Below are positions 3,315-42,685 of a stretch of DNA of 47,291 bases, in pieces. Position numbers and translations under genes: made by a program. The notes under the pieces were generated by a model that was given only the letters and a program-made list of their open reading frames with translations, was not told where the DNA came from and made no database searches. This DNA is from Bacteroidota bacterium (GTDB taxonomy: Bacteria; Bacteroidota; Bacteroidia; Flavobacteriales_F; PHOS-HE28). Position 1 is the stretch's first letter. Every line of letters starts with the position of its first letter. The stretch covers positions 1-47,291 of the forward strand of contig JAFDZG010000106.1 in the NCBI GenBank assembly GCA_018267065.1. Reading direction: 5' to 3'.

Positions 3315-3318
3315 TCGT

Positions 3319-3344: not shown

Positions 3345-3413
3345 CAAACGCATCTAAATCGCTGTAATTACCTGAAGCTTGTACAAGGAATTGCTCATAG
3401 GCTCTTGTTGAAT

Positions 3414-3494: not shown

Positions 3495-3618
3495 AACGAT
3501 GATCACTCACAAGCCGCTTGCAGAAACAGTTCTCCACGACACTGGTGGCCTACAATTTTGATGTGTTTGCCCTGCCGGGATTGCGGCGGCTTTCCGCCGG
3601 AAGCGCGACCTTTGCACC

Positions 3619-5420: not shown

Positions 5421-5530
5421 GTGACGAATGTAAGCGGAGGAAGGCTCCGGCCAAGCCGGGCCCCAAAGAATGGCCCCAATGCTCCGCTCCGAACGCCCCG
5501 GTATCCGCCCGTGCTGCGCATCTTTGCACA

Positions 5531-16960: not shown

Positions 16961-17611
16961 TCATTTCACCAGCCCTGCCGCGACGGCCAGGCGCACAAGG
17001 CCGGCCACGTTGTGCACGCCCAGCTTCTTCATCAAGTTGCTGCGGTGCGTGTCCACCGTGCGGGCGGAGATGAAGAGCTTGTCGCCGATCTCCTTGTTGG
17101 ACAATCCTTCGGCCAAGGCTCCCAGGATCTCCAGCTCCCGTGCGGTAAGGCCCTCCAGCCCGGGGGAGCTGCCCGCCGCCGATGTGCGCTGTTGTGCGAG
17201 GCTTTCAGTGATGGCTGCCGAAAAATGCTTCTGCCCTTCGGCCACTGCGCGCACGGCACGCAGCAATTCATCACGGCCGCTGGTCTTCAGCAGGTAGCCA
17301 TCGGCGCCCTTGCCCAGCAGGTCCCGGATCACGGCGGCTTCGTCGTGCATGGTAAGGACGATGACCCGCATCCGGGGCCAGCGCTCCTTGATCTGCCGCA
17401 TCACTTCGGCGCCCCCCATGCCGGGCATGTCCAGGTCCAACAACACCACGTCCACCGCCACGTGCCCCAGCAGGAAGAGCAGGTCCCGCCCGTTTTCGGC
17501 AGTGCCCGCGCATTCCACGTCGGGTGCATCCGCCAGTAGGCGCACCAGGCCTTCGGTGATGATGCGATGGTCGTCGCAAAGAGCGATCTTGATAGACTTG
17601 GGGGAGGGCAT
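16961..17611 (-). CDS. NarL/FixJ (LuxR)-family response regulator
   Basis: Internal ATG of ORF 16961-17656. Receiver domain (IKIALCDDH..., [13 protein letters not shown]) and LuxR HTH ([44 protein letters not shown]). Confidence 0.88.
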
Positions 17612-17652
17612 GGAGCTTTTGGTGACGGTGCAAGATGGTGAAGCGCCGCGGA

Positions 17653-19659: not shown

Positions 19660-19661
19660 GC
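19632..19661. repeat. 12-bp tandem repeat gcatgcggcgga x2.5
   Basis: Read directly. On the minus strand it encodes MLRRMLRRM and creates three in-frame start codons for the kinase gene. Confidence 0.85.
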
Positions 19662-19738
19662 AGCGAATGTAGCTCCGCGCAGAAAACGACAATGCCCGCA
19701 GGGCTTGTTCCCGGCGGGCATTGATGCACAAGTGCGGC

Positions 19739-22333: not shown

Positions 22334-22366
22334 CCGCTTGTGGCCCGTATTGGTGCTTGGCCCGGC

Positions 22367-22374
22367 CAAATGTA
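22367..22374 (-). promoter_or_regulatory. Bacteroidota-type -7 box (TACATTTG)
   Basis: The reverse complement of caaatgta lies 33 nt upstream of the carboxyltransferase ATG (22333). Confidence 0.35.
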
Positions 22375-22454
22375 GAGGCATTGGGTGCAATCGCCCTTTG
22401 GCACACCGCCACGGCGCTGGACCCGCAGGGCGGCAACAACTACTTTCGTGCCGC

Positions 22455-27356: not shown

Positions 27357-28109
27357 TCAGCCTTCCGCCAACGCGGCCTCCACCTCCTCGCTCAGTTCCA
27401 TGTTGTGGTACACGGCGTTCACGTCGTCGTCCTCCTCCAACATGTCCACCAGCTTCATCACGTTGCGCGCCGTGGCCAGGTCCACGGGAATGGTGCTCAG
27501 CGGGAAGCGCTTCAGCTCAGCGCTTTTCGGCTCGATGCCCAGCTCGTCCAGCTTGTGCTGGATGTTGCCGAATTCGGTGAAAGGTGCGAGGATCACGAAG
27601 CCTTCGTCGTCGTGCACCAAGTCATCGGCACCGGCATCGATCAACGCCATTTCAAACTCGTCCGGGTCCATTTTCTTCAGTGAGTCGCCGGTTACCACAA
27701 ACTCGGCCTTGCGCTCAAACACATGCGAGAGCGAGCCGGAGTTGCCCAGGTTGCCATCGCACTTGTTGAAGAAGCTGCGCACGTTGCTGACGGTGCGCGT
27801 GGGGTTGTTCGTGGCCGTGTCCACGAAAATGGCCACGCCGCCCGGGGCGTAGCCTTCGTAGGTCATCTCGGTGTAATTCTCCTCGGTGCCGCCCGCGGCC
27901 TTCTTGATGGCCCTGTCGATGTTGTCCTTGGGCATGTTCATGCCCTTGGCATTTTGAATGGCCACCTTCAGGCGGTGATTGGCCTCGGGGCTGGGCCCGC
28001 CGGCCTTCACGGCCATGGAGATCTCCTTGCCGATGCGGGTGAAGAGCTTGCTGAGCTTGGCGTTGCGGGCGAAGATCTTGTGCTTGCGTTTCTCGAAAAT
28101 GCGGCCCAT
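27357..28109 (-). CDS. YebC/PmpR family DNA-binding transcriptional regulator
   Basis: Internal ATG of ORF 27357-28274. MGRIFEKRKHKIFARNAKLSKLFTRIGKEISMAVKAGGPSPEANHRLKVAIQNAKGMNMPKDNIDRAIKKA; 250 aa. Confidence 0.9.
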   Translation of the reverse strand: MGRIFEKRKHKIFARNAKLSKLFTRIGKEISMAVKAGGPSPEANHRLKVAIQNAKGMNMPKDNIDRAIKKAAGGTEENYTEMTYEGYAPGGVAIFVDTATNNPTRTVSNVRSFFNKCDGNLGNSGSLSHVFERKAEFVVTGDSLKKMDPDEFEMALIDAGADDLVHDDEGFVILAPFTEFGNIQHKLDELGIEPKSAELKRFPLSTIPVDLATARNVMKLVDMLEEDDDVNAVYHNMELSEEVEAALAEG

Positions 28110-28310
28110 GTGGAAGGATCGATTTGAAATGGAAATGCGGGAGGCCCCGCAGGGAGCGCGAAAATAGGGAGTTACGGACGGTCTCCCACCACTTCCCCTT
28201 ATGCGTGGCAATTGCGCTGCTGACACATGGGGCAGCGTGCCAATGAAAAAGCCTTCAATTGTGACGATCATCATTGTTTTTTGACTTTCTGCTTTTCACC
28301 ATTGCCTTAT

Positions 28311-30011
28311 ATGGCACCGAATGGGATTTTCCATGCGGTTTTCTTGGCGGGGGCCTGCATTGCGGCCCAAGCACAGGATATTGCCCAGGTTGGACAAAGC
28401 CCCGCTGTCCAGTTCAACGGGGTGTTGCAGGCTCGCTTCGGCCTGTACCATGCACAAGGGATCGATCCGCGGCACACACCGGGGTTTTGGTCCATCAGCG
28501 GATCACCCGTGCTCAGCGTGCTGGGCATTCAATTGCCGTTCATGCTGGTGCTCAGCGATCAGCAGCGTTCGTTCCAGCAGCCCTTCAACCAGTTCGGCCT
28601 CAGCCCGCGCTACAAATGGGCGAAGCTGCACCTGGGCTATCGCGACCTCACGTTCTCGAAATTCACGCTCGCCGGCCACAGGGCATTGATGGCGGGCGTG
28701 GAGCTCAACCCCGGCAAATTCCGGTTCGGCTTCATGTACGGGCGCTTCCAGAAGGCCGTGGCCGAGGATACCACCGCCGTGTACGACCCTTCAACGTTCA
28801 TCAGCGATGTGCCCGTACCGGCATACAAGCGCATGGGCTATGCGGTGAAGCTGGGCGTAGGCACCGAGGAACAGCATGTGGACCTGGTGGTGCTGCGTGT
28901 GCAGGATGATGTCCGCTCGATCCCCAACCCGGCCAAGGTGCAACTGGCACCGGCGGAGAACTTGGCCATTGGTCTTACGGGCCGTGTAAAATTGTCCGAG
29001 GTGCTGCGCTGGGAATTCGATGTGGCCGGCAGCTCCTATACCCGTGATGTGCGGGCGGAGCCGTTGGCGAATGAGGACCGGCCTTGGGTCCGGGCCGTGG
29101 ATCCCCTTTTCGCCGTGCGCACCAGCACGCAGGCACTGATGGCCGTGGAAACCGGCCTTGTGCTGAAGCGGAAACGCCTGCGCGGCAAGCTCACCTATCG
29201 CCGGGTGGACCCCGACTACAAGAGCATGGGCACCTATTACTTCCAAACGGATGTGGAACAGGTCACCGGCACGGCCAGTGGCAGCTTGTTCAAGAACCGG
29301 CTAAGCGCCAACGCCACCGTGGGTTGGCAGCACAACAACCTGAAGCGGCTGCGTGCCGCCACCGCCAAGCGCATCATGGCCAACCTGGGGTTGAGCTACG
29401 CGGGCGGAAAGGCGTTCGGTTGCGTGCTCAACTACTCCAACTTCGGCATCGTGCAGGACCCGCTGAGGCCGGTGGCAAACGACACTGCACGGTTCAGGCA
29501 AGTCAGCCAGAACCTGCTGTTGCAGCCGCGCGTGACATATTCCGCAAGCAATGGCAGCCACTTTGCCACGTGCACCATCAACTTCTTTGCCCTCAGCGAC
29601 CGTGGCGCGGAAGCCTTCAGCCGGGCCATGCTCACCGGTCTGCACACGGACCTGGCCTACACGCGGAACTGGAAGCAGGACCAGGCCCGCCTGGGCGGTG
29701 GGGCGATCTTCCGCAACACGGAGAGCGTCGTGGGGCGCACGATCAGCAAAGGCTTCCACGTGGAAGCGGGCCGTTCCTGGCTGAAGGAGGGCCGCTTGGG
29801 CACTGAACTGCGCGGCTCCTTCCTGGCCAATGCACTTCCCGCAAGCGGCAACGGATCCACCTGGCAATTGGACCTGCAAGGGAGCATGCAGGCCACCAAG
29901 CGCATCTCCTTCGTGCTCACGTTGAGCCATCAGGACAACCGCAGCAATGACCCGTCGGTCCCCGCCTTCACCGAAGATACCGGTGTCATCGGCGCGGACA
30001 TCCGCTTCTGA
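28311..30011 (+). CDS. 566-aa outer-membrane beta-barrel protein (hypothetical), first gene of the giant-protein cluster
   Basis: Internal ATG of ORF 28227-30011. Signal peptide MAPNGIFHAVFLAGACIAAQAQ, amphipathic beta-strand pattern throughout, C-terminal ...VIGADIRF (terminal Phe). Confidence 0.7.
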   Translation: MAPNGIFHAVFLAGACIAAQAQDIAQVGQSPAVQFNGVLQARFGLYHAQGIDPRHTPGFWSISGSPVLSVLGIQLPFMLVLSDQQRSFQQPFNQFGLSPRYKWAKLHLGYRDLTFSKFTLAGHRALMAGVELNPGKFRFGFMYGRFQKAVAEDTTAVYDPSTFISDVPVPAYKRMGYAVKLGVGTEEQHVDLVVLRVQDDVRSIPNPAKVQLAPAENLAIGLTGRVKLSEVLRWEFDVAGSSYTRDVRAEPLANEDRPWVRAVDPLFAVRTSTQALMAVETGLVLKRKRLRGKLTYRRVDPDYKSMGTYYFQTDVEQVTGTASGSLFKNRLSANATVGWQHNNLKRLRAATAKRIMANLGLSYAGGKAFGCVLNYSNFGIVQDPLRPVANDTARFRQVSQNLLLQPRVTYSASNGSHFATCTINFFALSDRGAEAFSRAMLTGLHTDLAYTRNWKQDQARLGGGAIFRNTESVVGRTISKGFHVEAGRSWLKEGRLGTELRGSFLANALPASGNGSTWQLDLQGSMQATKRISFVLTLSHQDNRSNDPSVPAFTEDTGVIGADIRF

Positions 30012-30032
30012 CACCATGATAAGCCCCGTGCC

Positions 30033-33000
30033 ATGAGAACCTTGCCCGCCTTGATGACCGCCGCGCTGGTCGCCATGACCGCCGCCGCGCAGGGACAGGT
30101 GGTGGTGACGCCCATCATCACGCCGCCGTACAGCATCCACCTCAGTGACTACCAAGGGGCGCTGATCGTCAACCTGCTCAATACCACCACCGCGCCGCGC
30201 CAGGTGAAGTTGGTGGGCACCATCACCGGCGACAACGGATACAGTGGCCGCACGCGCAGCAGCTACGCCCCGCAGTCGCCCATCGTGCTGGCGGGCTTAG
30301 AGAACAAGGTGATCCAGGCCAATTCCCAGGCCATGGCGTTCCTGGACCCGAACAACTTCCAAGTGAGCGCGCCCCAGCAGGTGGCCGATGCCGTGATGCA
30401 GACGGGGATCCTGCCGGAGGGCAACTATGAGCTGTGCGTGCAAGCCCTGGACTACAACACCAATGCGCCGCTCAGCGATGAGGCCCCGGCGGGCTGCCTG
30501 TTCTTCACCATCGCCATGGCACAACCGCCCGTGATCACTTTCCCGCTATGCGGCGAGGCCGTGGAAACGCAATGGCCGGTATTTACCTGGAGCCCGCCCG
30601 TGGGCAACTTCAACCTGGCCAATGTGCGCTATGACCTGTACATCCTGGAACTGCTTGCGGGACAGAACCCGGGCGATGCGATCACACTGGCCATGGACGG
30701 CGTGATGGGAAACCCCATTGTGCGCACCAACCTGGCCGCACCCACCTACCCTTGGCAACCCTACGACCCGAAATTGAACACCGGCGTGACCTACGTTGCC
30801 GCCGTGGTGGCCAAGGATGCAACCAACAGCATTCCATTCGAGAACAAGGGCCGCAGCGAGGCATGCACGTTCGAAATACAACCGGCACAGCCTCCGCCAC
30901 CGGCCTACACCGCCGGCGTGCAGACCATGCCCGCGAACATGCTGCCCATCGGCCCCATTGGGGATACGCGGATCCGGGGCCGACTGGTGTACCGGTTCAA
31001 GGACAGCGGCAGGCAAAGCTGCACACCGGATGTTCCCAGCGGTTCCTTGTACCTGGGAACACAGCCAGTGAACTTGTCCACAACGGGGGGGTATTTTGGG
31101 AATGGTGCGTTGGCGCCACAAGCCGGGGCTGTTTCTTCGGGATCGGGCGCTGCCTCGTACAACAGTGCGATCGGAGGCATGGTGCCCATCGGGGCCTTTG
31201 ATCAGGCCTCCGGGGCCACGGCCACCCTTGACCTTTCGTCCACTGTGATCGTTGGACCGAACCTGGGCTTTTCAATCTTCCCGGACTACAAGTGGAAAGA
31301 CCGCTTTCCCGTAAGCACATCGGGGGGGCATGCGCTGAAGAACATCCCGATCAGGCTGGTGGAGCGCGTGGTATTGGAAGGCGTGGAAACGCGAGACAAC
31401 CAAGGGAAAGTGAGCACGGCCGATCGCGTGGTGCTCGGCGTGGACCCGATCCCCGGCAGCGGGGGCATCCATCAACCGGAGTACGGCAGTGCCTGGCACT
31501 TCGGCCAGGTGGTCGCCACGGGCCACACCGGTGACAACGGTGAGTTCGAACTCTTCTTCCACCAGCCTTCCTGCACCGGGATCAATGTGCCGGGCAGCTT
31601 CGATAACTTTATGCCAACCGTCAACTACGGCCTGCCTGGCAAGCAATGGATAGGAAGCACCACCGCCACCAACGCCTACAAGGTGATGATGCTGGAGGTG
31701 GCGTCGCCCTACTACTGCAGCCCGGACCTGGAGATCTTCACGCAGCCCGGCGATGATGTGGACCTGCCGGAGCAAGCGTGCTACGTGCGCAGCTACGACC
31801 TGAAGGTGACCGTGGTACAGGGTGCCTGCAACCACCAGATGGGCGGCACCGGGAGCCCGATGGGCAATGTGCAGGTAAGCGTGCTCAGGCCCGCTGACCA
31901 CCATCCAGCGGAAATTCCGGGGATTGAAGGCCAGCACAAGGACGACGGCATGTCCATCCCGGGCATGGGCGAAGTGCCCCTGGTTTCCCAGTGCTACACC
32001 AAGTCTGCGGACGGCAGCGCCTTGTTCAACAACCTGGTGTTCCACAGTTCAGCGGACGGGTATGTGCTGGATTGCAGAACGAGCGATGAGCGCGGGTTGT
32101 ACAGCTATTACCGCCACACGGCGGCATACCCTGCCGGCCAAGGCCCCCTTCCCGTGGCGCCCCCGTCATCCTATGTGCGCAACAGCACGTTCCAGGTGCC
32201 GGAATACGACGTGGCCGTATCCATGGAACCCCGCGGTCCGCGCGTGATCGGCAGGGTGATGGCGGACGTTGCACAGCCCCTGCCGGACGCGATCGTGATG
32301 CTGCACCTGCGCTACGACAAAGCACCCGGGCAAGTGCCCCCGGTGGTCGTCGGTTGTACCAAAAGCACGGAGTCCGCGGACTTCACGGAGATGACGTACA
32401 CCACCAAAACCGGCCCGAACGGCTTCTTCGATTTCTCCGGCATACTGGTGAAGGGATCACAGGACGGCATGTTCTTCCTTGGCCCGCATGCGCGCATCAG
32501 CGTGGTAAAGCCGGGCTTCTGGCCGGCATCGCGGCCCCTGCCCGCAGGCAACGAACCCGGCATTCCGCCGGGGCAGTTCAACAACAGCAACCCGCAGGAA
32601 CCTGCGGTGGACCTGAAGATGGGGCTGCAGTGGGACATGACCAGCGGCATTCTGCTCAAGCCCTACGGCAAGGTGAAGGGCACGATACAGGACGAGGATG
32701 GAAAACCTGTGCGCTGCGATGTGCAGGTGGGCGATGGGCCGTGGGGAAGATCGGAAACTGTGCTGGTGCCCACGGGAAATGCAGGTGGCACGAGTGGCAC
32801 AGGTGGCCAATGGGCACCATCAGGATTGGTGCCCATGCAGATCACCGGTGGCGGCGGGCAGGGATCTCCGGCCTGGATGATGCAATTACCGGCCTATTCC
32901 GCAACAACGGGGGTAAACGCCACTTGGCAACCGGCGAGCGGCACAGGTGGTGTTTTGGCAACCGGTGCCTATCTGACCTACCAAGCCACCGAGCGCTTCG

Positions 33001-36000
33001 AAGTGCCTGCGCCGTCCGGCGTGCAACAGGTGAAATTGCTGCCATTGAGCGATCAGTACTTCCCGTTGAACGTGACGCGGGCAGTGCCCGTCAACAACGG
33101 TCCCGAGGCAAGTGACCTTGGCGTGTTCACGGTGAAGGAAAAGCGGCATCGCCTGCGCGTGGCGCTGAAGTCCTGGAACGGACCCGTGGCCGGTGCAACG
33201 GTTCGGCTGGACGAGCGGCAGCAGACCTCCGACCAGGCCGGCATGGTCTACTTCGAGTTCCTTTCCCCCGAAAGCGAGTTCCGGTTGAAGGTGTACCCGC
33301 CCGGCGACCTGATGCCCGTGAACCAGATCGTGGTGAATCCGGTTACCCCGGAACCGGTGACGCTGGAGGTGCAATTGGAAAAGGGCACCAGCTTGATCGG
33401 ACAGGTGATTTCCGACCCCGGCGGCACTCCTGTTGCGGGGGCCCGGGTTTGGGTGGAAACCGGCGCGGACCAGTATGGTGCACAGTTGAACCAGACCACC
33501 ACGGACGGCCAGGGCAATTTCACGCTCCACGGCGTGGTCATGGGGCCTATGACCGTGCATGCGGCCAAGGCGGACAGCCTGGTCAGTTACATCGGAACGG
33601 CGGTGGACGTGAACTATTTCATGGCACCGGGGCCACCGCCGGACTTCAAGATGATCCCGCATCTGCCCCATGTGGAGCTGGTGCTGCAGCGTGCCAGTGA
33701 CCTGGACCTCACCAAACTGCTGGGCTTCCCGGTGGAAGTGGAGAAGCGCGTGCAGAACAGCGACGGAACTTCCACCATCAGCGGCGCATTCATCAACCTT
33801 CCGGCCAACGCTAACTTCGGGTTGGAAGATCCCGGCCAACGCATCGCCTTCACCAATGTGAAGGTGCAGGCCGGGGCGATAGGACCGTTGGGCTTGTCGC
33901 AGGCGGTGCCCGCAAGCGGTTCCGTGGCAACGGACATGGCACAGGTGCCGCTTAAGCTGTACGGCGGACTGGACGCCACCTTGAAGGGCGTGCCCGTTTC
34001 TTTCTTCCCAGGGCTGGTGCAGGTACAGGGAACCGCCACCGGCGGGGTGGTGCGTGGCACGGTGAGCAGCGAGCTGTCCACCTTCAACTTCTCCTATGAT
34101 TTCACCGGACGGTTCTATCTGGGCGATGGCCCGGATCAACCGCAGCTGGACGTGTTCCGCAGCAACGGGGCGTATCCGCAGCGCACCTTCAACCTGATGA
34201 CGCTCAAGTTAGGCACCATGAGCCTGCAGTGGGAACCTTCCAACGCCGCATTCTCCCTGCGCGGCTTCCCGGCGCGAAGCGACCGCACGCGCTCCTTTGT
34301 GGAACCCGGGATCTTCCGCATTGCCACGGTGGTACAGGTGAAGGACGTGCCCGACATCACGCCAGCGCTCCTGGAGCTGGACGTGGGCGACATCCGCGTG
34401 ACCCCCGAGGCCATTGAAGGCATCATCGGCGGAGGCGATAAGCTCAACTTCAAGTTGAACGACTGGAGCTTCACCGCCAGTGCACCCTGGTCCTTCAACA
34501 ACGACCTGGCGGCGATCGTCATTCCGGAAGGCACCTTGGACATGGGGCTGGCCAAGGCCTCGATGACGCAGATCATGATCCGTCCCAACGGGCTGGAGAT
34601 GAACGCCGGCCAACTGGGTGAAGTGCGCCTCGGCGGCGTGGCACCGTTGCAGCCCGCGACCGGCGTACCCTGGACGTTTGGCTACGATCCGGGCTATGTG
34701 TACCAGGGCAAGGCTGGTGCATGGCGCTTTGGTGCCCTCACAACCGGCGCCGCCGAGGTGGCCACCGTGCAGGGCCCAGCGGAACTGGTGCCAAGCAAGG
34801 TGCAGTTCTCCAGCTTCTCCCTGTTCAGCCGGGGCCAGCCGCTTGCGGAAGTGCGTGCCATGAATTACCGCTACTTCAACATCATGGACATGACGCCGGT
34901 GGGCAGCATGCAGTTCACCCCGGACGGCGTGGACCTGCTGGTGAACTGCTCGCTTGCGATCCATGGGCTGCCACAGACCACGGGCTTCTTCAGCTTCTAC
35001 AAGGACGGCACCAAAACGGCCAGTCGCCTGAAGCCCTTGGGGGCCACCATCACCACCGGCCGCGGCAACGTGTACTTCAAGCTGGACGACCGCATGGCCT
35101 CACAAACGGTGAAGCCGGGGCAGTTCACTTGTTACGGCCAGTTCCGGATCGATCCCGAGGACGGTTCCTCCGGTGAACCGGTCTACGCGTACGGCTTCCT
35201 GGACCATACCGCGGCGAGCACCTACATCGACCTGATCCGCACCGATGCACAGCACTACAAGGGCAGCACGCGGCAAGAGGTCCGGTTCGGTGGATCGCCG
35301 AACAAGAAGATGCTCCTCAACAGCGGGCGCCAGACCATGGGGCCGGACCAATGGAACGATCTTTCCTTCAAGGGCAACCTGGTGAACTTGGCCGGGATCG
35401 ACGACAACCCGGCGAACGAACTCTCCTTTACCGTGAAGGGCGCCGTGGAACTGGGGCAAGGCAAGATCGGCATGTCGCAACTGGCCACGCCCTTCGGCAA
35501 CATGGCCATGAGCTACGATTTTGAACACGCCCGCTTAGTGGGCAGCTTAGGCCTGTCCAACAACAACTTCGGCGCGGTGAACATCGTGAATGCCCAGTTG
35601 GGCCTGCTCGTGGACAAGGACGGGTTCTTGGTGAGCTGTTACGATTCGCATGTGATCGTACCGCCGGTCCCTTGGCCGCTGCAAGACCATCACCCGGCAT
35701 TCATGATCGGCGCACATAACGCCATTCCGGACACGCTGCTTTCCAACCTGATGAGCGGGTACCGCTACAAATCACTGCCCGCCACCATGGCCGGCAAGAA
35801 GCTCAAAGGCTTGTTCCTGCAGGACAAGTTGAGCTTGATCGACTTCTCGGTGCCCAGCCTGAACTTGGGGGTGATGGGCGTGTCGGGCCATGCGAGCTGT
35901 GCGGTGGAGGGCCGCAACTGGGTGGACCTTTCCGGAAGCCTCGGCTTCGGCGGCATGGCCTATGCCGATGTGGGCCTGAGCTTCTGGCTGCTCAGCCCCA

Positions 36001-36218
36001 TTCCCGACTGCTCCAGCCTGGACCTTTCCGCAAGCGCGGAAGTGCTGTTCGAGGCCGCTCTCCAGGGAAGTACCTTCAGCTTGATCGCCTGCGGGTCCAC
36101 CAGTGTTGGCGCGAGCATCTGCGGTGTGAGCGACAGCTTCGGCCTTACGGTGAAGGGCAGCGTGAACTCCCAAGGGAATATCACTTTGGACCGCATCGAT
36201 GGATCATGCGGGCAATGA
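30033..36218 (+). CDS. 2061-aa secreted giant protein (hypothetical) with carboxypeptidase-regulatory-like repeats
   Basis: Uninterrupted 6.2-kb ORF with signal peptide MRTLPALMTAALVAMTAAAQGQ. Ig/CarboxypepD_reg-like segments (GKVKGTIQDEDGKPVRCDVQV; LIGQVISDPGGTPVAGARVWVE...DGQGNFTLHGV). No T9SS tail; the C-terminus is Cys-rich. Confidence 0.85.
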   Translation: MRTLPALMTAALVAMTAAAQGQVVVTPIITPPYSIHLSDYQGALIVNLLNTTTAPRQVKLVGTITGDNGYSGRTRSSYAPQSPIVLAGLENKVIQANSQAMAFLDPNNFQVSAPQQVADAVMQTGILPEGNYELCVQALDYNTNAPLSDEAPAGCLFFTIAMAQPPVITFPLCGEAVETQWPVFTWSPPVGNFNLANVRYDLYILELLAGQNPGDAITLAMDGVMGNPIVRTNLAAPTYPWQPYDPKLNTGVTYVAAVVAKDATNSIPFENKGRSEACTFEIQPAQPPPPAYTAGVQTMPANMLPIGPIGDTRIRGRLVYRFKDSGRQSCTPDVPSGSLYLGTQPVNLSTTGGYFGNGALAPQAGAVSSGSGAASYNSAIGGMVPIGAFDQASGATATLDLSSTVIVGPNLGFSIFPDYKWKDRFPVSTSGGHALKNIPIRLVERVVLEGVETRDNQGKVSTADRVVLGVDPIPGSGGIHQPEYGSAWHFGQVVATGHTGDNGEFELFFHQPSCTGINVPGSFDNFMPTVNYGLPGKQWIGSTTATNAYKVMMLEVASPYYCSPDLEIFTQPGDDVDLPEQACYVRSYDLKVTVVQGACNHQMGGTGSPMGNVQVSVLRPADHHPAEIPGIEGQHKDDGMSIPGMGEVPLVSQCYTKSADGSALFNNLVFHSSADGYVLDCRTSDERGLYSYYRHTAAYPAGQGPLPVAPPSSYVRNSTFQVPEYDVAVSMEPRGPRVIGRVMADVAQPLPDAIVMLHLRYDKAPGQVPPVVVGCTKSTESADFTEMTYTTKTGPNGFFDFSGILVKGSQDGMFFLGPHARISVVKPGFWPASRPLPAGNEPGIPPGQFNNSNPQEPAVDLKMGLQWDMTSGILLKPYGKVKGTIQDEDGKPVRCDVQVGDGPWGRSETVLVPTGNAGGTSGTGGQWAPSGLVPMQITGGGGQGSPAWMMQLPAYSATTGVNATWQPASGTGGVLATGAYLTYQATERFEVPAPSGVQQVKLLPLSDQYFPLNVTRAVPVNNGPEASDLGVFTVKEKRHRLRVALKSWNGPVAGATVRLDERQQTSDQAGMVYFEFLSPESEFRLKVYPPGDLMPVNQIVVNPVTPEPVTLEVQLEKGTSLIGQVISDPGGTPVAGARVWVETGADQYGAQLNQTTTDGQGNFTLHGVVMGPMTVHAAKADSLVSYIGTAVDVNYFMAPGPPPDFKMIPHLPHVELVLQRASDLDLTKLLGFPVEVEKRVQNSDGTSTISGAFINLPANANFGLEDPGQRIAFTNVKVQAGAIGPLGLSQAVPASGSVATDMAQVPLKLYGGLDATLKGVPVSFFPGLVQVQGTATGGVVRGTVSSELSTFNFSYDFTGRFYLGDGPDQPQLDVFRSNGAYPQRTFNLMTLKLGTMSLQWEPSNAAFSLRGFPARSDRTRSFVEPGIFRIATVVQVKDVPDITPALLELDVGDIRVTPEAIEGIIGGGDKLNFKLNDWSFTASAPWSFNNDLAAIVIPEGTLDMGLAKASMTQIMIRPNGLEMNAGQLGEVRLGGVAPLQPATGVPWTFGYDPGYVYQGKAGAWRFGALTTGAAEVATVQGPAELVPSKVQFSSFSLFSRGQPLAEVRAMNYRYFNIMDMTPVGSMQFTPDGVDLLVNCSLAIHGLPQTTGFFSFYKDGTKTASRLKPLGATITTGRGNVYFKLDDRMASQTVKPGQFTCYGQFRIDPEDGSSGEPVYAYGFLDHTAASTYIDLIRTDAQHYKGSTRQEVRFGGSPNKKMLLNSGRQTMGPDQWNDLSFKGNLVNLAGIDDNPANELSFTVKGAVELGQGKIGMSQLATPFGNMAMSYDFEHARLVGSLGLSNNNFGAVNIVNAQLGLLVDKDGFLVSCYDSHVIVPPVPWPLQDHHPAFMIGAHNAIPDTLLSNLMSGYRYKSLPATMAGKKLKGLFLQDKLSLIDFSVPSLNLGVMGVSGHASCAVEGRNWVDLSGSLGFGGMAYADVGLSFWLLSPIPDCSSLDLSASAEVLFEAALQGSTFSLIACGSTSVGASICGVSDSFGLTVKGSVNSQGNITLDRIDGSCGQ

Positions 36219-36227
36219 AAAACGGCC

Positions 36228-37778
36228 ATGACCATGCGCACATTCATCCTTCCTTTCCTGGTGCTTGCCTTGCCCTGCGCAGGCCAGCAGGCCGTCACGA
36301 CCAAGACAGCCCAAACGGCTTGCTTGTTCCAACCCGTGTCACAGGAAACCAACGGCGAGCGCATCCGCGTGGCTTGGGCTGCGCCGAAGTGCGTGCCTGC
36401 CGCAGTCCGCGTGTTCCGCAGGCGGCAGCATGTGGGCACCGAAGCGGAGATCCATCCGGTGATCGTCCAAGGCACGCGCAATGACACCACCACCGTGATC
36501 TGCTGGGACACGCTGTTCACCGAGCTCGGCATCTACGAATACCGCTTGGTACCGGTGGATTCCGCCGGCCGCGAAGGGCCATCTTCCCCCTGGGTCACCG
36601 CGAACAACCTCAATGCCGAGGCCCGGCCTTGGTTCGAGTACATCCGGGCCGGTGATGTGCCCGGCACGCGCGGCATTCAGTTGAGGTGGCGGTTGGGCAA
36701 TGCGGTGCGTACCAGGGGGATCGCCATTTTCCGGTCGGACCGCTTTGAGGGGCCCTATCGGCACAGGGCCGACGTGCCCGCGTCGGACACCACGTTCACG
36801 GACTTGGTCCAGCGTGTAAGGGAGACCTACTTCTACCGGCTGGAAGCGATCGATGTGGTGGGGCATTCCACCATGAGCATGCCGGTGCAGGGGTTGAGCA
36901 ACTACGCGCCGCCGGTGCCGGCACCCGCCTGGGTGCAGGCCGAAGCCGGTCCATCGGGCATCAGCTTGCATTGGCCCATGGGCGGGCCGGATATCCTGCA
37001 GTACAACGTGGAGCGCGGCACGCCCGCCGATACGCAGTTCGTACTGGTCGCATCGGGCATCCGGCCAAGTGCCGGTGCCGGCCCGCAGTGGACGGACAGT
37101 TCCGCGACGGACAACAGCGTATTGCGCTACCGGGTGCGGGCCGTGGGCATTGGCGGTACCATCAGCGGTCCGTCACCGGTGGCGGGCGTACAAGCCGCCG
37201 ATGCCCACATACCGGCCTCGCCAACGGATGTGGTGGTGCGCCGGGCGGACCGTGCGGTGGTCATCAGCTGGCGCGATCCGTGGTCCGGTGATCGCGGCAT
37301 CGCATGGACCCAGGTGGAGCGCGCCGCTGCCGATGGGTCCGATTTCCATCCGGTGAACAAACAACCGTTGGAGCCCGGCATCCTGGCCTATTTCGATTCC
37401 ACGGCCTTGCCGGACCAGCCCTACCGTTACCGGGTGGTGGGCGTTTCCCTTTCGGGCACGCGGGGCGTGCCTTCGCAGCCTGTAACGCTGGATGCCGGGC
37501 CCATGGGGGCCGATGCACCGCGCCTGCTGAACGCCACCCGCACCAAGGATGGGATCGGCCTTTCCTGGGACGGGCGGGAAAGGCACGGCCGCGGATTCAA
37601 GCTCTACCGGTCCGTGGGCGGGGCCAAACCCGAGTTGTTGAAGACGTTGCCCATCCAAACAAAAGAATACGTGGACACTGCACCGGTGCACGGGGCCTTG
37701 AACATGTACCTGCTGCGCATGGTGCTGCCGGACGGTACCGAAAGCAAGCCGAGCGAGCCAGCGGGCATGCGCTGGTAG
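36228..37778 (+). CDS. Secreted protein with five fibronectin-III-like repeats
   Basis: 516 aa with signal peptide MTMRTFILPFLVLALPCAGQQ. Five repeats each end in a Y.YR..AV...G..S.PS-like signature (YEYRLVPVDSAGREGPSSP, YFYRLEAIDVVGHS, LRYRVRAVGIGGTISGPSP, YRYRVVGVSLSGTRGVPSQP, MYLLRMVLPDGTESKPSEP). Confidence 0.8.
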   Translation: MTMRTFILPFLVLALPCAGQQAVTTKTAQTACLFQPVSQETNGERIRVAWAAPKCVPAAVRVFRRRQHVGTEAEIHPVIVQGTRNDTTTVICWDTLFTELGIYEYRLVPVDSAGREGPSSPWVTANNLNAEARPWFEYIRAGDVPGTRGIQLRWRLGNAVRTRGIAIFRSDRFEGPYRHRADVPASDTTFTDLVQRVRETYFYRLEAIDVVGHSTMSMPVQGLSNYAPPVPAPAWVQAEAGPSGISLHWPMGGPDILQYNVERGTPADTQFVLVASGIRPSAGAGPQWTDSSATDNSVLRYRVRAVGIGGTISGPSPVAGVQAADAHIPASPTDVVVRRADRAVVISWRDPWSGDRGIAWTQVERAAADGSDFHPVNKQPLEPGILAYFDSTALPDQPYRYRVVGVSLSGTRGVPSQPVTLDAGPMGADAPRLLNATRTKDGIGLSWDGRERHGRGFKLYRSVGGAKPELLKTLPIQTKEYVDTAPVHGALNMYLLRMVLPDGTESKPSEPAGMRW

Positions 37779-37818: not shown

Positions 37819-37848
37819 AAAGGGCCGCCACTTGCGTGGCGGCCCTTT
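37819..37848. terminator. Bidirectional stem-loop terminator (12-bp stem aaagggccgcca/tggcggcccttt, 6-nt loop)
   Basis: Perfect inverted repeat between the convergent genes ending at 37778 (+) and 37900 (-). A/T runs flank both sides. Confidence 0.7.
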
Positions 37849-37899: not shown

Positions 37900-38886
37900 T
37901 CAATTAAATCCCACCAATGTCAGGCCCACGTTCAGTGCCCGCAGGTCGGGTGCAGTGCCTTCCTCGAAGATGGGCGTGAGCGCATACTCTGCAAAGAGGT
38001 TTAAGCCACCAAACCCGATCTGTGCGCGCGCCGCCAAGCGGTAGGGCAGCAGGTTGTAATCGTCCTTGCTACGGTTCTTTACATTGTGTCCGCCCTCGGT
38101 GTATTTCTGCTTGTACATGGTGTCGAAGTACCAACTGCCCACCACGCCAAAAGCCAAGTGGAAGTTGTCCTTGCGGCTGAAGGACCAGTCCGGTTTGCCC
38201 CGGAGCTCCTGTGCATCGGCCGGAAGCTTGGCGCGCTTGGTATTGAACTCCAACATCAGCGGCACGCGCAGGCCGATCTGGCGCAGCTTGTTCTTGCGCA
38301 GGTCCGGCGTGGCCATGGGCACGGCCCACGTGCTGTCGCCATTGGCCATCAACGTGTTGTTTTCGCTGAGCTTGTAATTGAGGAACTCCAGGCCCAGCCC
38401 GGTGAACAAACCGGCATGGTGGCTGCCGAACTCAACTTTCTCCTCCATGAAGTTGATGGCGAAAAAGCGGCTCCTGGCGTTGTTGAGTTGAAGAGGACCA
38501 CTTTCCGGTCCATCGCCCACGCGGCCGTCCGGCGCGATGAAGGTGTTGATGCCCAGCTCCACGCCGGCCCAGTAGGTGAAGAGGTTGCGGCGTTCCTGGC
38601 GCAAGTCGGCCAGGCGTTCCTTCAAGCTTTCCGCCGTGTCCATGTCATTGCGCGGCATGGTGATGATGCGGATGAGCTTTCTCCTGGTGGTGATGCGGAT
38701 GGTGTCCGGTCCGGCCTTCATGGTATCGGCCCGATCAACGCCCACGTGCATGCCGTCCGCGCCCGCACTGATCACCAATGCATGTTGTTTTTCCTGAACC
38801 TTCGCGCTATCGGCAACGGCACCGTCCTGCTGGGCGGAAGAAACCAAGGGCAACAGCAGCAGGGCGGTGAATCCAAGGGCTTTCAT
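37900..38886 (-). CDS. Outer-membrane beta-barrel protein (hypothetical), last gene of the ECF sigma operon
   Basis: 328 aa with signal peptide MKALGFTALLLLPLVSSAQQ, beta-strand pattern, C-terminal ...LNVGLTLVGFN. Confidence 0.7.
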   Translation of the reverse strand: MKALGFTALLLLPLVSSAQQDGAVADSAKVQEKQHALVISAGADGMHVGVDRADTMKAGPDTIRITTRRKLIRIITMPRNDMDTAESLKERLADLRQERRNLFTYWAGVELGINTFIAPDGRVGDGPESGPLQLNNARSRFFAINFMEEKVEFGSHHAGLFTGLGLEFLNYKLSENNTLMANGDSTWAVPMATPDLRKNKLRQIGLRVPLMLEFNTKRAKLPADAQELRGKPDWSFSRKDNFHLAFGVVGSWYFDTMYKQKYTEGGHNVKNRSKDDYNLLPYRLAARAQIGFGGLNLFAEYALTPIFEEGTAPDLRALNVGLTLVGFN

Positions 38887-38930
38887 GGTGTGGTCGTCTT
38901 TGAATGTGGGACGGCCTACGCCTGCTTAAG

Positions 38931-39314
38931 TTACAGTCCCGCCTGTTCAGGCTTGAAGGTGAAGCGTACGTGCGTGGTGTTCCACAGCCCGGAAGGGTTG
39001 GCGCCCACTTGCACCTTGGCCAGTTTGTGTACCACGTAGTCGCGCAGTTCACGGTTTTCAGAGCGGGCTTCCTTCACCACAAGACGGCCGTTCACATCCA
39101 CGGCAAAGGCCACGTCCACCGTGCCGCACATGGTGCCCTCTTCCGCGTCAAGCGGGAAGATCACGTGGTGGTTGATCTGGTGCATCACGGCGCGCTCCAT
39201 GGAGCGGCTGTTGGCGGTGGAAGGTACCGGTGCATCATCGCTGGTGGCGCGGACCTGGCCGGCGAAAAGCATGGTGCCCAGGAACAGCAGGAGGGAAAGA
39301 TGTGCGGTTTTCAT
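38931..39314 (-). CDS. Small secreted protein with a TonB C-terminal-like pattern (tentative)
   Basis: Internal ATG of ORF 38931-39356. Signal MKTAHLSLLLFLGTMLFAGQVRA. GTVDVAFAVDVNGRLVV...LRDYVVHKL resembles the TonB_C fold signature. Confidence 0.6.
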   Translation of the reverse strand: MKTAHLSLLLFLGTMLFAGQVRATSDDAPVPSTANSRSMERAVMHQINHHVIFPLDAEEGTMCGTVDVAFAVDVNGRLVVKEARSENRELRDYVVHKLAKVQVGANPSGLWNTTHVRFTFKPEQAGL

Positions 39315-39420
39315 GGTTGTGATGTGCTGGTTTTCGGACATAAGACGGCGGTGCAACGGATGTTGTTACAAGGCATATACGTTGTTGTGATGAACGGCAC
39401 GTATGCGGTGCGGGCGGGCC

Positions 39421-40716
39421 TTAACGGTCCCGGCTCGCGCTGATGGAGAATTTCCGGCCGAGGCTGAAACGGATCTTCTCGCGCGTGGCGCTGCGCTGCA
39501 CCTGCACACAGCCTGCCCCGTTGCTAACGGCGCCCACGGCACGGTCCGCCATGGCCAACAGATCATTGCCGTCCAATCCGCTGGAACGCTTGGGCGTGGC
39601 CAGCACGTCGCCGCGTAATTGGTTTGCTGCGAAAACCGCGAGGTCCTGGCCTTGTGAAACTGTTGATGAAGCCATCGGTACAGCTTTGCCCGCAGGTAAG
39701 GCAGGCGTAGTTTCTTGTGGCGCGGCAGGTGCTTCAGCCAATTCCGGCTCTTCCAACGGAGCCTCCACCGGAATGGGCACTGGTGCAACCCGCTGCGGGG
39801 ATTCCTGCCGCACCGCGGGGATGGCTTCGGACTTCCTTTGCTTGCCCACCCTTGAAGCGGCCGGCTGCGCGGGCTGTACCTGGGCAGGGCCGTTTGTTTG
39901 CGCGGCGGGCTTGGGTAGTTGCGGGTCCTCCTGGGCGGCAGACTTGGCAGGAAGCGGCGTTGCCGGTGCCAAGGGGCGGTTGCGCTGTGCCAATGATGCA
40001 TCATTCCGGTTGCTGCGGACCTGCACCCACAACCCCATGCCAATGCACAGCAGCACGCTCGCCGCGGCTGCCCAGCGTGTCCACAAAGGCAGCACACGCG
40101 TTTCGCGCTTCAGCATTTGCTTCTTCCACGGAAAAGCCACCGGCTCCGGTGGAATGCGCGCCATGGCCACCAACCGGTGTTCACGCTGCGTCTCCGGGTG
40201 GTCGTGCAGGTAGCGGCATAGCGCGGCATGCTGTTCCGGGCTGAGGTCGCCTTCCGCGTCGGCGATCAGGAAGTCTGTCAGGCGGTGGCTGTTCGGGAGG
40301 CCTTGTGGCGGGAAGTGTTTTTCCAGGTTGGCCTTTTGCATCAAAGGCACAGCTCCGGCTTTCACCTTGGTCTTGGCCATAAGGGCCGCATCCCGTGCGG
40401 CTTCCGGGTGCTCGTACAGGTAGCGTTCCAGCTCCAACTCCTGTTCAGGGGAAAGTTCTCCTTCAAGCCGTGCTGCTAAAAAATCAACTATCCGTGCCGC
40501 ATCCGGCATGCCGGTGGGAGGGAAGGTGCGCAGCAGCGATCCCTTTTCTTGGAAATGCTCCTCCGCCGCGTGGACCTTCGGCAGGTCACCAGCATGCACT
40601 GCAAGCTCGGGGTGCGCCTTCAGGAACGCATCCAAATGCTCCTCCTGTTCCGGGGTCAGCATACCCTCGGCGCGGTCCAGCAACCATGCTTCATATGTCG
40701 TGCGGTCCAACTTCAT
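39421..40716 (-). CDS. Anti-sigma-factor-like membrane protein with a triplicated N-terminal repeat
   Basis: 431 aa. Its start overlaps the sigma gene stop (ATGA). Three units of about 55-60 aa each carry EG.L(S/T)PEQ...L..(F/Y)L..HPE ... FPP.G(M/L)P, followed by a TM (VLPLWTRWAAAASVLLCIGMGLWV) and a Pro/Ala-rich extracytoplasmic region. Confidence 0.65.
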   Translation of the reverse strand: MKLDRTTYEAWLLDRAEGMLTPEQEEHLDAFLKAHPELAVHAGDLPKVHAAEEHFQEKGSLLRTFPPTGMPDAARIVDFLAARLEGELSPEQELELERYLYEHPEAARDAALMAKTKVKAGAVPLMQKANLEKHFPPQGLPNSHRLTDFLIADAEGDLSPEQHAALCRYLHDHPETQREHRLVAMARIPPEPVAFPWKKQMLKRETRVLPLWTRWAAAASVLLCIGMGLWVQVRSNRNDASLAQRNRPLAPATPLPAKSAAQEDPQLPKPAAQTNGPAQVQPAQPAASRVGKQRKSEAIPAVRQESPQRVAPVPIPVEAPLEEPELAEAPAAPQETTPALPAGKAVPMASSTVSQGQDLAVFAANQLRGDVLATPKRSSGLDGNDLLAMADRAVGAVSNGAGCVQVQRSATREKIRFSLGRKFSISASRDR

Positions 40717-41198
40717 AGCACGTTCTCCAGGCTGCCGATGTATTCCTTCAGCGCGGTGCGGCCCCGGTAGATGTACACTTTCACCTGGGTGACGTTCAGT
40801 TCGGTGAGCTCAGCGATCTCGTCGTAGCTGTATCCTTCCAGGTCGCGCAAAAGCACCACGCTGCGCTGCACTTCAGGTAATGTGGCCAAGGCGGCTTCCA
40901 GCACTTCCTTCAGGTCGGGCTGCTGTTGGTTGCCCCAGCGCAGGTCTTCATGCCGTTCCTCCATCCGCGTGCTTCTTGCATCCCGGCGTGCCGCGTCTAC
41001 CAGGAGGTGGTGCGCCGTGGTGAAGAGGTAGCTCTTGGCCTTGGCACCGTCCACGTCGTCCAGTTTTTGCCACAAGCGCGCGTAGGCTTCCTGTACCACG
41101 TCCTTGGCGTTGTCGCGGTCGCGCAGGTGCTTCACCGCAAAGCGGAAAATGCCGTCCGCATGGACTTGCACGGCGCTATTGTACTCGTGGAGGGTCAC
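40713..41198 (-). CDS. ECF-type RNA polymerase sigma-70 factor
   Basis: GTG start inside ORF 40713-41372 gives (M)TLHEYNSAVQVHADGIFRFAVKHL, a Bacteroidota ECF N-terminus. Region 2 (DVVQEAYARLW) and region 4 HTH (YSYDEIAELTELNVTQVKVYIYRGRTALK); 161 aa. Confidence 0.85.
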   Translation of the reverse strand: MTLHEYNSAVQVHADGIFRFAVKHLRDRDNAKDVVQEAYARLWQKLDDVDGAKAKSYLFTTAHHLLVDAARRDARSTRMEERHEDLRWGNQQQPDLKEVLEAALATLPEVQRSVVLLRDLEGYSYDEIAELTELNVTQVKVYIYRGRTALKEYIGSLENVL

Positions 41199-41383
41199 GG
41201 TGGGGGGATTACGGGTATGACGGGCACGCCCGGTGAAAGTTACAAGCAGGCGGAACACGCACGGATGGGCCTGCCACCATGGGAGTTCACGGCGTTGGAA
41301 GCCATTGTTTTCCGGGATGGTCCTTGATGCCTTCAGGCAACATCCATGGGGCAAGTACGCGTCATTGGACAAATACCACCCTG

Positions 41384-42685
41384 ATGAAGTACGTGAACCT
41401 GGTGCATTTGCTTGCTATGGCAGGGCTGATCAGCCTGGCCACACCTGCCTTGGCCACGGAATACTACGTGGAGCAGATCAATGTGCTTCCCGCATCACCA
41501 AGTGACCAGGATGCGGTGCAATTGGTGGTTTCGGGCTACCTGGCAAACACCCAATCCTACGTTTCCGGCATTACGGCAACGGTGGACGGGTTCAATGTTT
41601 TGGTTACCATCATTGCAAGCAACTTCGGGGGTATCAATATCCCGGTAACGGTGGCCCATGCGGACACCGTCGTATTGGGCACCTTGCCGGCAGGCACGTA
41701 CACCATCAATCTGAACGGAAACATGATCATGGATTCCGCACCCCAGGCACAGCACAGCTTCACGGTTTCCGGTGGGGCTGCCACCGTGTGTGATTCGCTG
41801 GTACTGGCCTCCGTCAGTTGGGCCCCGTTCAGCGATACCGCCTTGCTCGTGCATGTCTTTAACCCCACTTCCACCTTGTTCGACTATCCGGGATTCATCC
41901 TGCACGATGCCAATGGCGACACCCTTGCCAAGGAGACCGTGAACTTCTTCGGCATCGGGCAGGAAAGCTGGCACACACTGGCCATACAACCGGGTGCAAC
42001 CATTCCCCAAGGCCCTTTCAATGGCACCTTGGAGCTTTGGACGCTTTTCGGCCAAGAACTGGCGTGCAGCTGGAACCAGTCCTTCGACCTTTGCCCACCC
42101 GCACCCTGCGCACCCTTGAACGTGTTCCTGCAGAACACCGGCGGTGGAATGACGCTTGGGAGTTTCCACTACACCGTGCGCCAAATGGGCAATGAGGTGG
42201 CCGGCGGAACATTCGTGCTGTCACAGAATGCCCAATACGACAGTGATTCATTGTGCCTGCCGCCAGGTGCCTACCTGATGGAGGTAGTGCCGGACCAAGG
42301 TCCAACGGGAGGTCAACCCTTTTTCGGCGTGGGCCTTGGGAATGAGGTACAAGGACCCGGTGCACCCTTGGTGTTTACCACCCTGTCGGCCGTGGCATTC
42401 AACTTTTACGGTGCATGCTCCAATGGAACACAAGGCATTGCCGTGGCCGATCCCGCCAATTTGGTGCTGAACACGGGGAACGGTCGGGTTTCGGTGCGGC
42501 GTACGGATGGCCAGGCCTTGGGCGAGCTCCTGGTTTTCGATGCCCAAGGACGCATCGTGCTGGATGCGGTTGAAGCCGGGGCGCAACATGAATGGTCCAC
42601 TGCCGGGTGGGCTTCGGGGTTGTACTTGTTGCGTGAACAAGGGCTGCGCGGAAGTTTACTGACCCTGCGTTGGGTGGTGCCATAG
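41384..42685 (+). CDS. Secreted protein with a probable T9SS C-terminal sorting domain
   Basis: Internal ATG of ORF 41279-42685. Signal peptide MKYVNLVHLLAMAGLISLATPALA. The C-terminal roughly 80 aa (ELLVFDAQGRIVL...GLYLLREQG...LRWVVP) has a Por-tail-like pattern. Confidence 0.75.
   Translation: MKYVNLVHLLAMAGLISLATPALATEYYVEQINVLPASPSDQDAVQLVVSGYLANTQSYVSGITATVDGFNVLVTIIASNFGGINIPVTVAHADTVVLGTLPAGTYTINLNGNMIMDSAPQAQHSFTVSGGAATVCDSLVLASVSWAPFSDTALLVHVFNPTSTLFDYPGFILHDANGDTLAKETVNFFGIGQESWHTLAIQPGATIPQGPFNGTLELWTLFGQELACSWNQSFDLCPPAPCAPLNVFLQNTGGGMTLGSFHYTVRQMGNEVAGGTFVLSQNAQYDSDSLCLPPGAYLMEVVPDQGPTGGQPFFGVGLGNEVQGPGAPLVFTTLSAVAFNFYGACSNGTQGIAVADPANLVLNTGNGRVSVRRTDGQALGELLVFDAQGRIVLDAVEAGAQHEWSTAGWASGLYLLREQGLRGSLLTLRWVVP

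Follow-up and report, generated by a model that had tools for sequence, protein, structure and literature searches.

How does a giant secreted protein that carries no recognized sorting signal reach its place in the envelope of a Bacteroidota cell, and do the genes on either side of it take part? The question is raised by three adjacent genes, here named A, B, and C, in a stretch of 47,291 nucleotides from a Bacteroidota bacterium (assembly GCA_018267065.1, contig JAFDZG010000106.1), hereafter the window. Gene A (28311–30011, + strand) encodes a 566-residue predicted outer-membrane β-barrel of about 26 strands from an unnamed family, gene B (30033–36218, +) a 2061-residue Sec-exported giant assigned to the TANFOR superfamily, and gene C (36228–37778, +) a 516-residue Sec-exported protein with five Fn3-like repeats. 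The TANFOR proteins are an already published class, of which this locus holds a divergent member in an architecture of barrel, TANFOR giant, and multi-Fn3 protein. The triad is proposed to be one dedicated envelope module for the barrel-based display or export of the TANFOR giant, analogous, without homology, to two-partner secretion, a proposal whose chances are regarded as about even.

A conserved three-gene order

The three genes lie on the same strand, with gaps of 21 nt between A and B and 9 nt between B and C in the list of open reading frames (ORFs), which agrees with an earlier description of the locus made by eye from the letters and their translations (the sequence-only reading). Their GC content at third codon positions (0.79–0.81) is like that of neighboring genes. 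ORF A has two candidate starts, at 28227 and 28311. The ATG at 28311 gives a protein of 566 residues whose N-terminus (…CIAAQAQD…) lines up with homologues sharing “AQAQD”, and the start at 28227 would overlap the divergent YebC-like gene at 27357–28274; on these two grounds, 28311 is taken as the start of A. A perfect, GC-rich 13-bp hairpin (37819–37848) between C and the convergent downstream gene likely marks the end of the operon. Signal sequences of the basic–hydrophobic–AxA type, read by eye, open A, B, and C, and proteins at matching positions of similarly arranged published loci are SignalP positive (Jana et al., Supplemental Data 1, PMC7073777), in keeping with the Sec signal previously ascribed to each product.

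A total of 78 loci were retrieved through A alone, and their ORFs were searched with profiles of A, B, and C. At least 9 kb of sequence downstream of A was available in 61 of these loci, and all but one (60/61) have A, B, and C in this order on one strand; the exception has a truncated B. These loci span the Flavobacteriales, Sphingobacteriales, Chitinophagales, Bacteroidales, and Ignavibacteria, and their flanking genes vary. In loci reached through B, A is likewise found upstream of it (E = 1e-162) and C downstream (E = 1e-47). The co-conservation of the triad across Bacteroidota, which the sequence-only reading had raised as a possibility, is thus established by loci found through A alone. 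The same evidence bears on the view that the genes are coincidental neighbors, with A as a plain diffusion porin beside two unrelated secreted proteins, B and C. Such a view could draw on the fact that A consists of the barrel alone, with no other domain, and that one A homologue weakly matches the putative porin family BBP2_2 (E = 7.5e-4). However, the retention of the order across orders and phyla while the flanks change, the very short gaps, and the duplication of whole triads as a unit make coincidence scarcely credible.

The A family is widespread. When one genome per species of the GTDB was scanned, at least 579 species were found to have an A relative; among them are members of the Flavobacteriales, Flavobacterium, Pedobacter, Mucilaginibacter, Chitinophagaceae, Runella, Saprospiraceae, and Bacteroidales. 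A also occurs in metagenome-assembled genomes (MAGs) of Ignavibacteria and Kapaibacterium and in one MAG of the Gemmatimonadetes. The complete triad is present in the Gemmatimonadetes MAG (locus L054) and in an Ignavibacteria MAG (L046); the Kapaibacterium locus (L085) ends too soon for B and C to be seen. A word-indexed search returned more than 573 relatives of A, and an exhaustive profile search returned 3332 clusters at 50% identity with E ≤ 1e-3, or 1722 with E ≤ 1e-30. Almost all listed clusters are 550–600 residues long. The homologue P0293 has 949 residues, with a 418-residue N-terminal extension ahead of the barrel; the other listed members have approximately 415–600.

Two complete triads occur in tandem in a Cryomorpha ignava MAG (contig JBEBYG010000005.1; L016, 223–9762, and L003, 8292–17627). 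The two copies of A are 97% identical, the two copies of C 64%, and the two copies of B 51% overall, with 74–79% identity in the N-terminal 300 residues and 33–66% in the remainder. To judge from these identities, the barrel may have been subject to gene conversion or purifying selection, and the giant and its Fn3 partner may have diversified.

Some triads are accompanied by further genes directly upstream of A. A fourth gene with collagen repeats is found in 23 Pedobacter and Mucilaginibacter loci, examples being genes for proteins of about 600 residues with collagen triple-helix repeats in L036 (8128–9933) and L010 (8134–9993). In L006, proteins with Peptidase_S74 domains and SprB repeats are encoded upstream of A (3149–6048), and in L007, a TIG-domain protein (4702–6042). 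These fiber-type accessory genes point towards a surface appendage. The window contains no such fourth gene with collagen repeats or a Peptidase_S74, SprB, or TIG domain.

The barrel, the giant, and the Fn3 protein

Protein A had been described as having the strand pattern of a β-barrel and a terminal Phe, and this is borne out by its AlphaFold2 model (50-sequence alignment; predicted local distance difference test (pLDDT) score 83.9, predicted template-modeling (pTM) score 0.74). The strands, about 26 in all, span residues 33–565, the C-terminal residue is Phe, and the barrel has neither a plug nor a POTRA or other periplasmic domain. The closest structure found by Foldseek is MtrB (E = 1.7e-9, template-modeling (TM) score 0.47), followed by the FimD usher (TM 0.43) and by TonB-dependent transporters; all of these are generic large barrels of 24–26 strands, matched at TM 0.43–0.47.

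No sequence search places A in a known porin or transporter family, an assignment that would have spoken against a dedicated role. A has no Pfam or NCBIfam match at E ≤ 1, and a PDB sequence search with the A family profile found nothing. Hidden Markov models (HMMs) of Omp85 (Bac_surface_Ag/ShlB), POTRA, usher, FadL (Toluene_X), PorV, and PorP_SprF match neither A nor any of 49 homologues, so that the absence of a POTRA- or usher-like signature, first noticed by eye, holds for the HMM searches too; the Pfam family MtrB_PioB does not match A either. A Mtr-like electron conduit was considered and rejected: none of A, B, and C contains a CXXCH heme motif. The A family is large, unnamed, and uncharacterized, and is undescribed in the open-access literature searched.

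The TANFOR domain of B starts at approximately residue 23, right after the signal sequence (MRTLPALMTAALVAMTAAAQGQ), and extends to residue 165 (30099–30527, +); it is divergent from TIGR02542, the NCBIfam model of the domain (TANFOR, T_forsyth_147), and harbors a conserved Cys135/Cys155 pair. A second conserved N-terminal domain follows (residues 166–290; 30528–30902, +), delimited by the profile matches of distant B proteins and by alignment. BLASTP aligns residues 23–283 of B with the Flavobacterium terrae protein WP_073307596.1, the B protein of locus L029, at 37% identity (E = 7e-39), and the N-terminus of B also matches P0020 of locus L090 (E = 1e-42). WP_073307596.1 is entered as a TANFOR protein, with the domain at residues 27–164, in Supplemental Data 1 of Jana, Salomon, and Bosis 2020 (PMC7073777), and it matches TIGR02542 at E = 1.5e-9. 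Because its N-terminus is homologous to a published TANFOR protein, B is assigned to the TANFOR superfamily as a divergent member. The window B itself has no match to TIGR02542 even at E ≤ 10. The TANFOR label, which the sequence-only reading had offered tentatively, therefore stands at the level of the superfamily and fails at the level of the family model. TIGR02542 is matched by 8 of 10 triad B N-termini (E = 2.7e-10 to 0.018) and by the five most distant B relatives (E = 5.5e-11 to 8.9e-6); the triad B proteins score 15–43 bits, all under the curated cut-off of 67 bits.

The TANFOR and second domains are the sole portion common to all B proteins. Profile matches of distant B proteins, such as a 1513-residue Flavobacterium variant and proteins from Bacteroidales, Ignavibacteria, and Runella, are limited to profile positions 1–295, and the remainder of B is lineage-specific. 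The N-terminal module aligns cleanly across 18 diverse B sequences and is characterized by the motifs PPYS.YLSDY and LPEG.Y..C…GC, the latter with the conserved cysteine pair, and by F.W.PP…Y.L.I.E…NP in the second domain. A word-indexed search yielded only 24 full-length relatives of B, nearly all of about 2000 residues.

In the middle of B, one Ig-like CarboxypepD_reg domain (residues 1123–1179; 33399–33569, +) passes Pfam (PF13620, E = 8.8e-10, 39.2 bits against a cut-off of 32.3). The domain type that had been recognized by eye is thus confirmed once, and the plural “repeats” was an overstatement at the HMM level. A sub-threshold bMG3 match overlaps this domain; beyond it, HMMs of the TamB, LptD/LptD_N, and A2M/MG families find nothing in B. 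The only result of a PDB profile search with B was an Ig-like repeat of NOMO (E = 8.6e-4). The C-terminal region (residues 1200–2061; 33630–36215, +) is modeled by AlphaFold2 as entirely β (pLDDT 83.2, pTM 0.52), contains conserved cysteines, and closes in six long antiparallel strands of 14–21 residues. The model has no structural neighbor in the PDB or BFVD (Foldseek, TM ≤ 0.15). Matches of this low score to LptD, ApoB, microsomal triglyceride transfer protein (MTP), and porins were rejected as reflecting long antiparallel strands, not homology.

Protein C consists of five repeats of about 97 residues that share a W/D/YxYR/G/P signature. The window C has no Pfam match, and 9 of 16 C homologues match PF00041 (best E = 4e-20); together, the repeat alignment and these matches support the five Fn3-like repeats counted by eye. 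Across the family, the N-termini of C homologues are signals of the SPI type and not lipoboxes. A lipoprotein assignment was rejected, since Cys17 of “LALPCAG” is limited to the clade of the window and other C proteins have plain AxA-Q sites.

The published work on TANFOR proteins identified 339 of them, nearly all from Bacteroidetes and about 87% with Sec signals (Jana, Salomon, and Bosis 2020, PMC7073777). In many of them the C-terminus bears a nuclease, deaminase, or anti-eukaryotic toxin domain, and immunity genes are present as well; the authors defined the class as one of polymorphic toxins. The neighborhood of TANFOR genes was found to be enriched in SprB repeats and in Por_Secre_tail, PKD, and Fn3 domains, and the route of export was left open, with the secretion system of type IX (T9SS) as a speculation. 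The text of that paper makes no mention of a barrel or an upstream gene, which is understandable because the upstream gene has no domain in the CDD. The triad pattern nevertheless recurs in the authors’ own table, with a domain-less gene for about 535–572 residues upstream and a gene for about 640–690 residues downstream. The upstream, TANFOR, and downstream proteins have 535, 1513, and 639 residues in F. terrae; 572, 2152, and 668 (Fn3) in Mucilaginibacter sp. OK283; 564, 2149, and 668 in M. gossypii; and 551, 2330, and 696 in Olivibacter sitiensis. In Tannerella forsythia, a 548-residue protein precedes a TANFOR protein of 3078 residues (four copies), followed by proteins of 143 and then 665 residues, suggesting that this species has the same arrangement. 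Beyond this paper, no other on the TANFOR domain, and none on a barrel partner, was found in the open-access literature searched.

B shares with the TANFOR polymorphic toxins its large size, its dependence on Sec, a homologous domain at the N-terminus, and an Fn3 protein encoded nearby. Unlike them, the window B lacks a TIGR02542 match, a toxin domain, an immunity gene, and a neighbor with SprB repeats or a T9SS C-terminal domain (CTD). The comparison raises the prospect that B is a contact-dependent polymorphic toxin that delivers an unrecognized C-terminal toxin in the manner of CdiB–CdiA, with immunity encoded elsewhere or provided by C. The definition of the class, the barrel-then-giant order, which mimics cdiB–cdiA, and the differences in the C-terminal part of B between lineages are in its favor. 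However, the last 400 residues of 59 B proteins (the window B and 58 others from triads) contain no Pfam domain and hence no Pfam toxin domain. No small immunity-like ORF follows B, C beginning 9 nt on and the terminator-like hairpin coming next. The C-terminal ~860 residues are conserved from Flavobacteriales to Pedobacter, Bacteroidales, and the Gemmatimonadetes MAG and are not swapped as cassettes. A toxin role is consequently judged improbable for the window B, and on the same three grounds (no recognizable toxin domain, no immunity gene, and a C-terminus conserved across orders), an adhesin or surface structure is likelier.

Display and export at the outer membrane

As observed, the triad comprises three proteins, among them a large barrel without a plug and a giant with a TANFOR-related N-terminus, encoded in a conserved order. 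In the proposed display or export module, A, B, and C would reach the periplasm by Sec, and A would form an open barrel in the outer membrane, with about 26 strands. B would dock on A via the module formed by its TANFOR and second domains, which would plug the otherwise open pore. The rest of B, an Ig-like stalk and an all-β head of about 860 residues, would thread its way out and be exposed at the cell surface, driven by its folding on the outside. C is proposed to co-evolve with the variable part of B and may escort B in the periplasm or join it as a partner on the surface. Such a division into an N-terminal handle and a distal payload would follow the logic of two-partner secretion or of inverse autotransporters, but with unrelated components.

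The order of a barrel gene followed by a giant exoprotein gene is that of two-partner secretion and contact-dependent inhibition (CDI) systems (TpsB–TpsA and CdiB–CdiA–CdiI, type Vb). There, as in B, a variable remainder follows a conserved N-terminal module of about 250–300 residues, the periplasm is reached through Sec, and, as in the TANFOR relatives, C-terminal toxins are followed by immunity genes. However, TpsB is a 16-strand Omp85 protein with POTRA domains, whereas A has about 26 strands, no POTRA domain, and no sequence relationship to it. The TPS/hemagglutination-activity domain of TpsA is not found in B (Pfam and NCBIfam, E ≤ 1), and the triad differs by its third conserved gene, that of the Fn3 protein.

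A and C can also be likened to the chaperone–usher systems (FimD/PapC), in which a large barrel of the 24-strand class passes folded or semi-folded Ig-like subunits and has an Ig-type periplasmic partner. In contrast to the ushers, A lacks a plug and the N- and C-terminal periplasmic domains, and no match to the Usher or PapD Pfam families is found. C is a chain of five Fn3 repeats as opposed to a PapD-like two-domain chaperone, and B is a single giant as opposed to polymerizing pilins. In MtrCAB and LptDE, 26-strand barrels work only with a protein in the lumen, and MtrB is the top structural match of A; these systems differ from the triad in their cargo, and no LptD or LptE sequence signal is present. 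To our knowledge, the single-chain barrels of 24–26 strands in the PDB (the ushers FimD and PapC, MtrB, and LptD) all work with a protein seated inside the lumen. The partners conserved with A throughout are the N-terminal module of B and C.

The identity gradient from A over the N-terminus of B to C and the rest of B is of the kind expected if A is conserved machinery, the N-terminus of B a conserved handle, the rest of B an exposed payload that diversifies, and C a partner changing along with it. Since TANFOR relatives carry toxin domains, they must leave the cell. This requirement, together with the gradient, makes A as a conduit, an anchor, or both the most economical interpretation. The conserved cysteines of B fit an oxidizing compartment.

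Several observations weigh against the proposed module. Both the translocation of B and the part of A as its conduit are matters that we infer, and the passage of an unfolded protein of 2061 residues with about 21 cysteines across a barrel would be demanding. B also ends in ...GSCGQ and has a C-terminal sheet of long strands. Other architectures exist in the published table: a SprB/CTD protein followed by a TANFOR toxin and its immunity protein, and a 450-residue PKD lipoprotein followed by a TANFOR protein and a protein of about 790 residues that belongs to no family (PMC7073777). Most toxin-bearing TANFOR genes adjoin SprB/CTD or PKD-lipoprotein genes and not a gene for a protein of ~570 residues; therefore, TANFOR proteins do not always depend on an adjacent A. 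In favor of the module, two toxin-bearing TANFOR genes of Chitinophaga (the deaminase and BaCT toxins, WP_044218632.1 and WP_149837613.1) do have a domain-less gene for 581 or 593 residues upstream and an immunity gene downstream (PMC7073777); these upstream proteins are similar to A in size and position and are candidate homologues. Also in its favor, the TANFOR protein of T. forsythia was detected in a vesicle proteome (PMC10682907), a finding that fits a location in the lumen or on the surface alike.

An orphan TANFOR gene was also seen among the retrieved loci. In L008 (8001–17138), P0024 (1376 residues) stands directly after a SprB/Por_Secre_tail gene for more than 2710 residues and is followed by alternating family-less genes for 162, 573, 169, 385, and 167 residues, similar to toxin/immunity cassettes. 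This locus has the SprB/CTD–TANFOR architecture, with no adjacent A or C. The 573-residue protein was tried as a divergent A and rejected (hhalign probability 0.2%).

An unlikely but substantive explanation is that the T9SS exports B, via an unrecognized signal or by piggy-back on a CTD protein, and that A serves only as an anchor, as PorP/SprF proteins do for cargo with a type-B CTD. Such cargo, e.g., SprB, offers a parallel within the Bacteroidota, with the gene of a giant surface protein beside a barrel gene. The enrichment of SprB repeats and Por_Secre_tail near TANFOR genes, the presence of the T9SS in more than 95% of TANFOR genomes (PMC7073777), the SprB-repeat gene just upstream of A in L006, and the orphan TANFOR gene behind a SprB/CTD giant in L008 all favor this explanation. 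So does the presence of T9SS cargo in the organism of the window, where the product of 10105–11487 (− strand) matches Por_Secre_tail (PF18962, E = 2e-7) and served as a positive control. A second window protein to which a T9SS CTD had been ascribed (41384–42682, +) has no Pfam match at E ≤ 0.01, and its homologue in L003 has only a “faint” one; of the two assignments, the first therefore stands. In the triad itself, neither the type-A CTD (PF18962/TIGR04183) nor the type-B CTD (TIGR04131) is found in A, B, or C at E ≤ 1, and no T9SS CTD is found in the 59 B C-termini. The absence of a sorting signal, as originally described, is thus upheld, and no recognized CTD variant makes B ordinary T9SS cargo in the HMM searches, which supports the proposed module. 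Moreover, A is roughly double PorP/SprF proteins in size and resembles neither these nor PorV by HMM, most triad loci lack an adjacent CTD gene, and the T9SS is near-ubiquitous in these phyla, so that co-occurrence is little informative.

Alternatively, B might stay inside the cell as part of a periplasmic or inner-leaflet complex, as a scaffold, a protease trap, or a spanning structure under A, with C as the second component. The three proteins have Sec signals only and no known outer-membrane export signal, CELLO placed the T. forsythia homologue in the periplasm (PMC10682907), and the weak Foldseek matches of the B C-terminus are to lipid-handling sheets (LptD, ApoB, and MTP). Against this, the fast diversification of B and C beside a nearly invariant A in the tandem copies argues for selection from outside, and the toxins of TANFOR relatives need export (PMC7073777). 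In addition, no TamB/AsmA, alpha-2-macroglobulin, or LptD sequence signal is present, and an open 26-strand barrel would be unusual as a mere tether. Retention in the periplasm is accordingly considered rather unlikely.

The proposed display or export module agrees with the sequence-only reading insofar as a dedicated module is indicated by the synteny, the unmatched barrel, and the absence of a CTD; export itself, which that reading also put forward, stays at the level of a hypothesis. A bolder form of the proposal, advanced tentatively and with chances somewhat short of even, is that the A family constitutes the outer-membrane translocon of an unrecognized two-step secretion or display pathway in the Bacteroidota–Ignavibacteria, with the TANFOR module as the targeting and plug signal and the multi-Fn3 protein as the periplasmic escort.

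Neighboring genes and wider meaning

Two-component systems adjoin the triad in about half of the loci, with TPR or Y_Y_Y sensor kinases and LytTR or GerE regulators; loci with such genes upstream include L001, L006, L007, L009, L010, and L011. LytT regulators also appear in the published table of TANFOR neighborhoods (PMC7073777). In the window, a TPR–HisKA_3 kinase and a GerE regulator (16961–19731, −) lie 8.6 kb upstream of the triad and are not adjacent to it. The pair is noted as an observation only, as the clustering lumps all histidine kinases together and gives no specific link to the triad.

Downstream, the convergent genes at 37900–41372 (−) encode a 327-residue protein with a weak OMP_b-brl_2 match, family-less proteins of 140 and 430 residues, and an extracytoplasmic function (ECF) sigma factor. 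The same arrangement is present in L003, and by BLAST clustering their relatives turn up in no more than about four loci. They are probably a separate unit of an ECF sigma factor with a possible anti-sigma factor and outer-membrane protein. Elsewhere in the window, a 682-residue protein (11547–13592, +) combines a lamin-tail domain, Fn3_assoc/CHB_HEX_C_1, and a CotH kinase domain, and a sensor kinase (22131–24368, +) with NIT (nitrate/nitrite sensing), HAMP, and HisKA_2 domains is apparently unrelated to the triad.

No class of polymorphic toxins other than the TANFOR proteins has been described as specific to the Bacteroidota, and the exit of TANFOR proteins from the cell is an explicit open question, for which the sole earlier proposal, the T9SS, rests on neighborhood enrichment. 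A large subclass of TANFOR giants is encoded between an unnamed barrel of about 26 strands and a multi-Fn3 protein, and the cultured carriers of the triad include Flavobacterium terrae, Pedobacter, Mucilaginibacter, and Paraflavitalea. If the A family is a translocon, it would supply the export route left open by the 2020 paper and would be a functional analogue of the type V and usher systems built from unrelated parts. If the barrel is a conduit, a new outer-membrane secretion route would be at hand; if it is an anchor only, the triad would represent a new way of attaching giant adhesins to the surface, in a phylum that matters in gut, oral, soil, and aquatic habitats.

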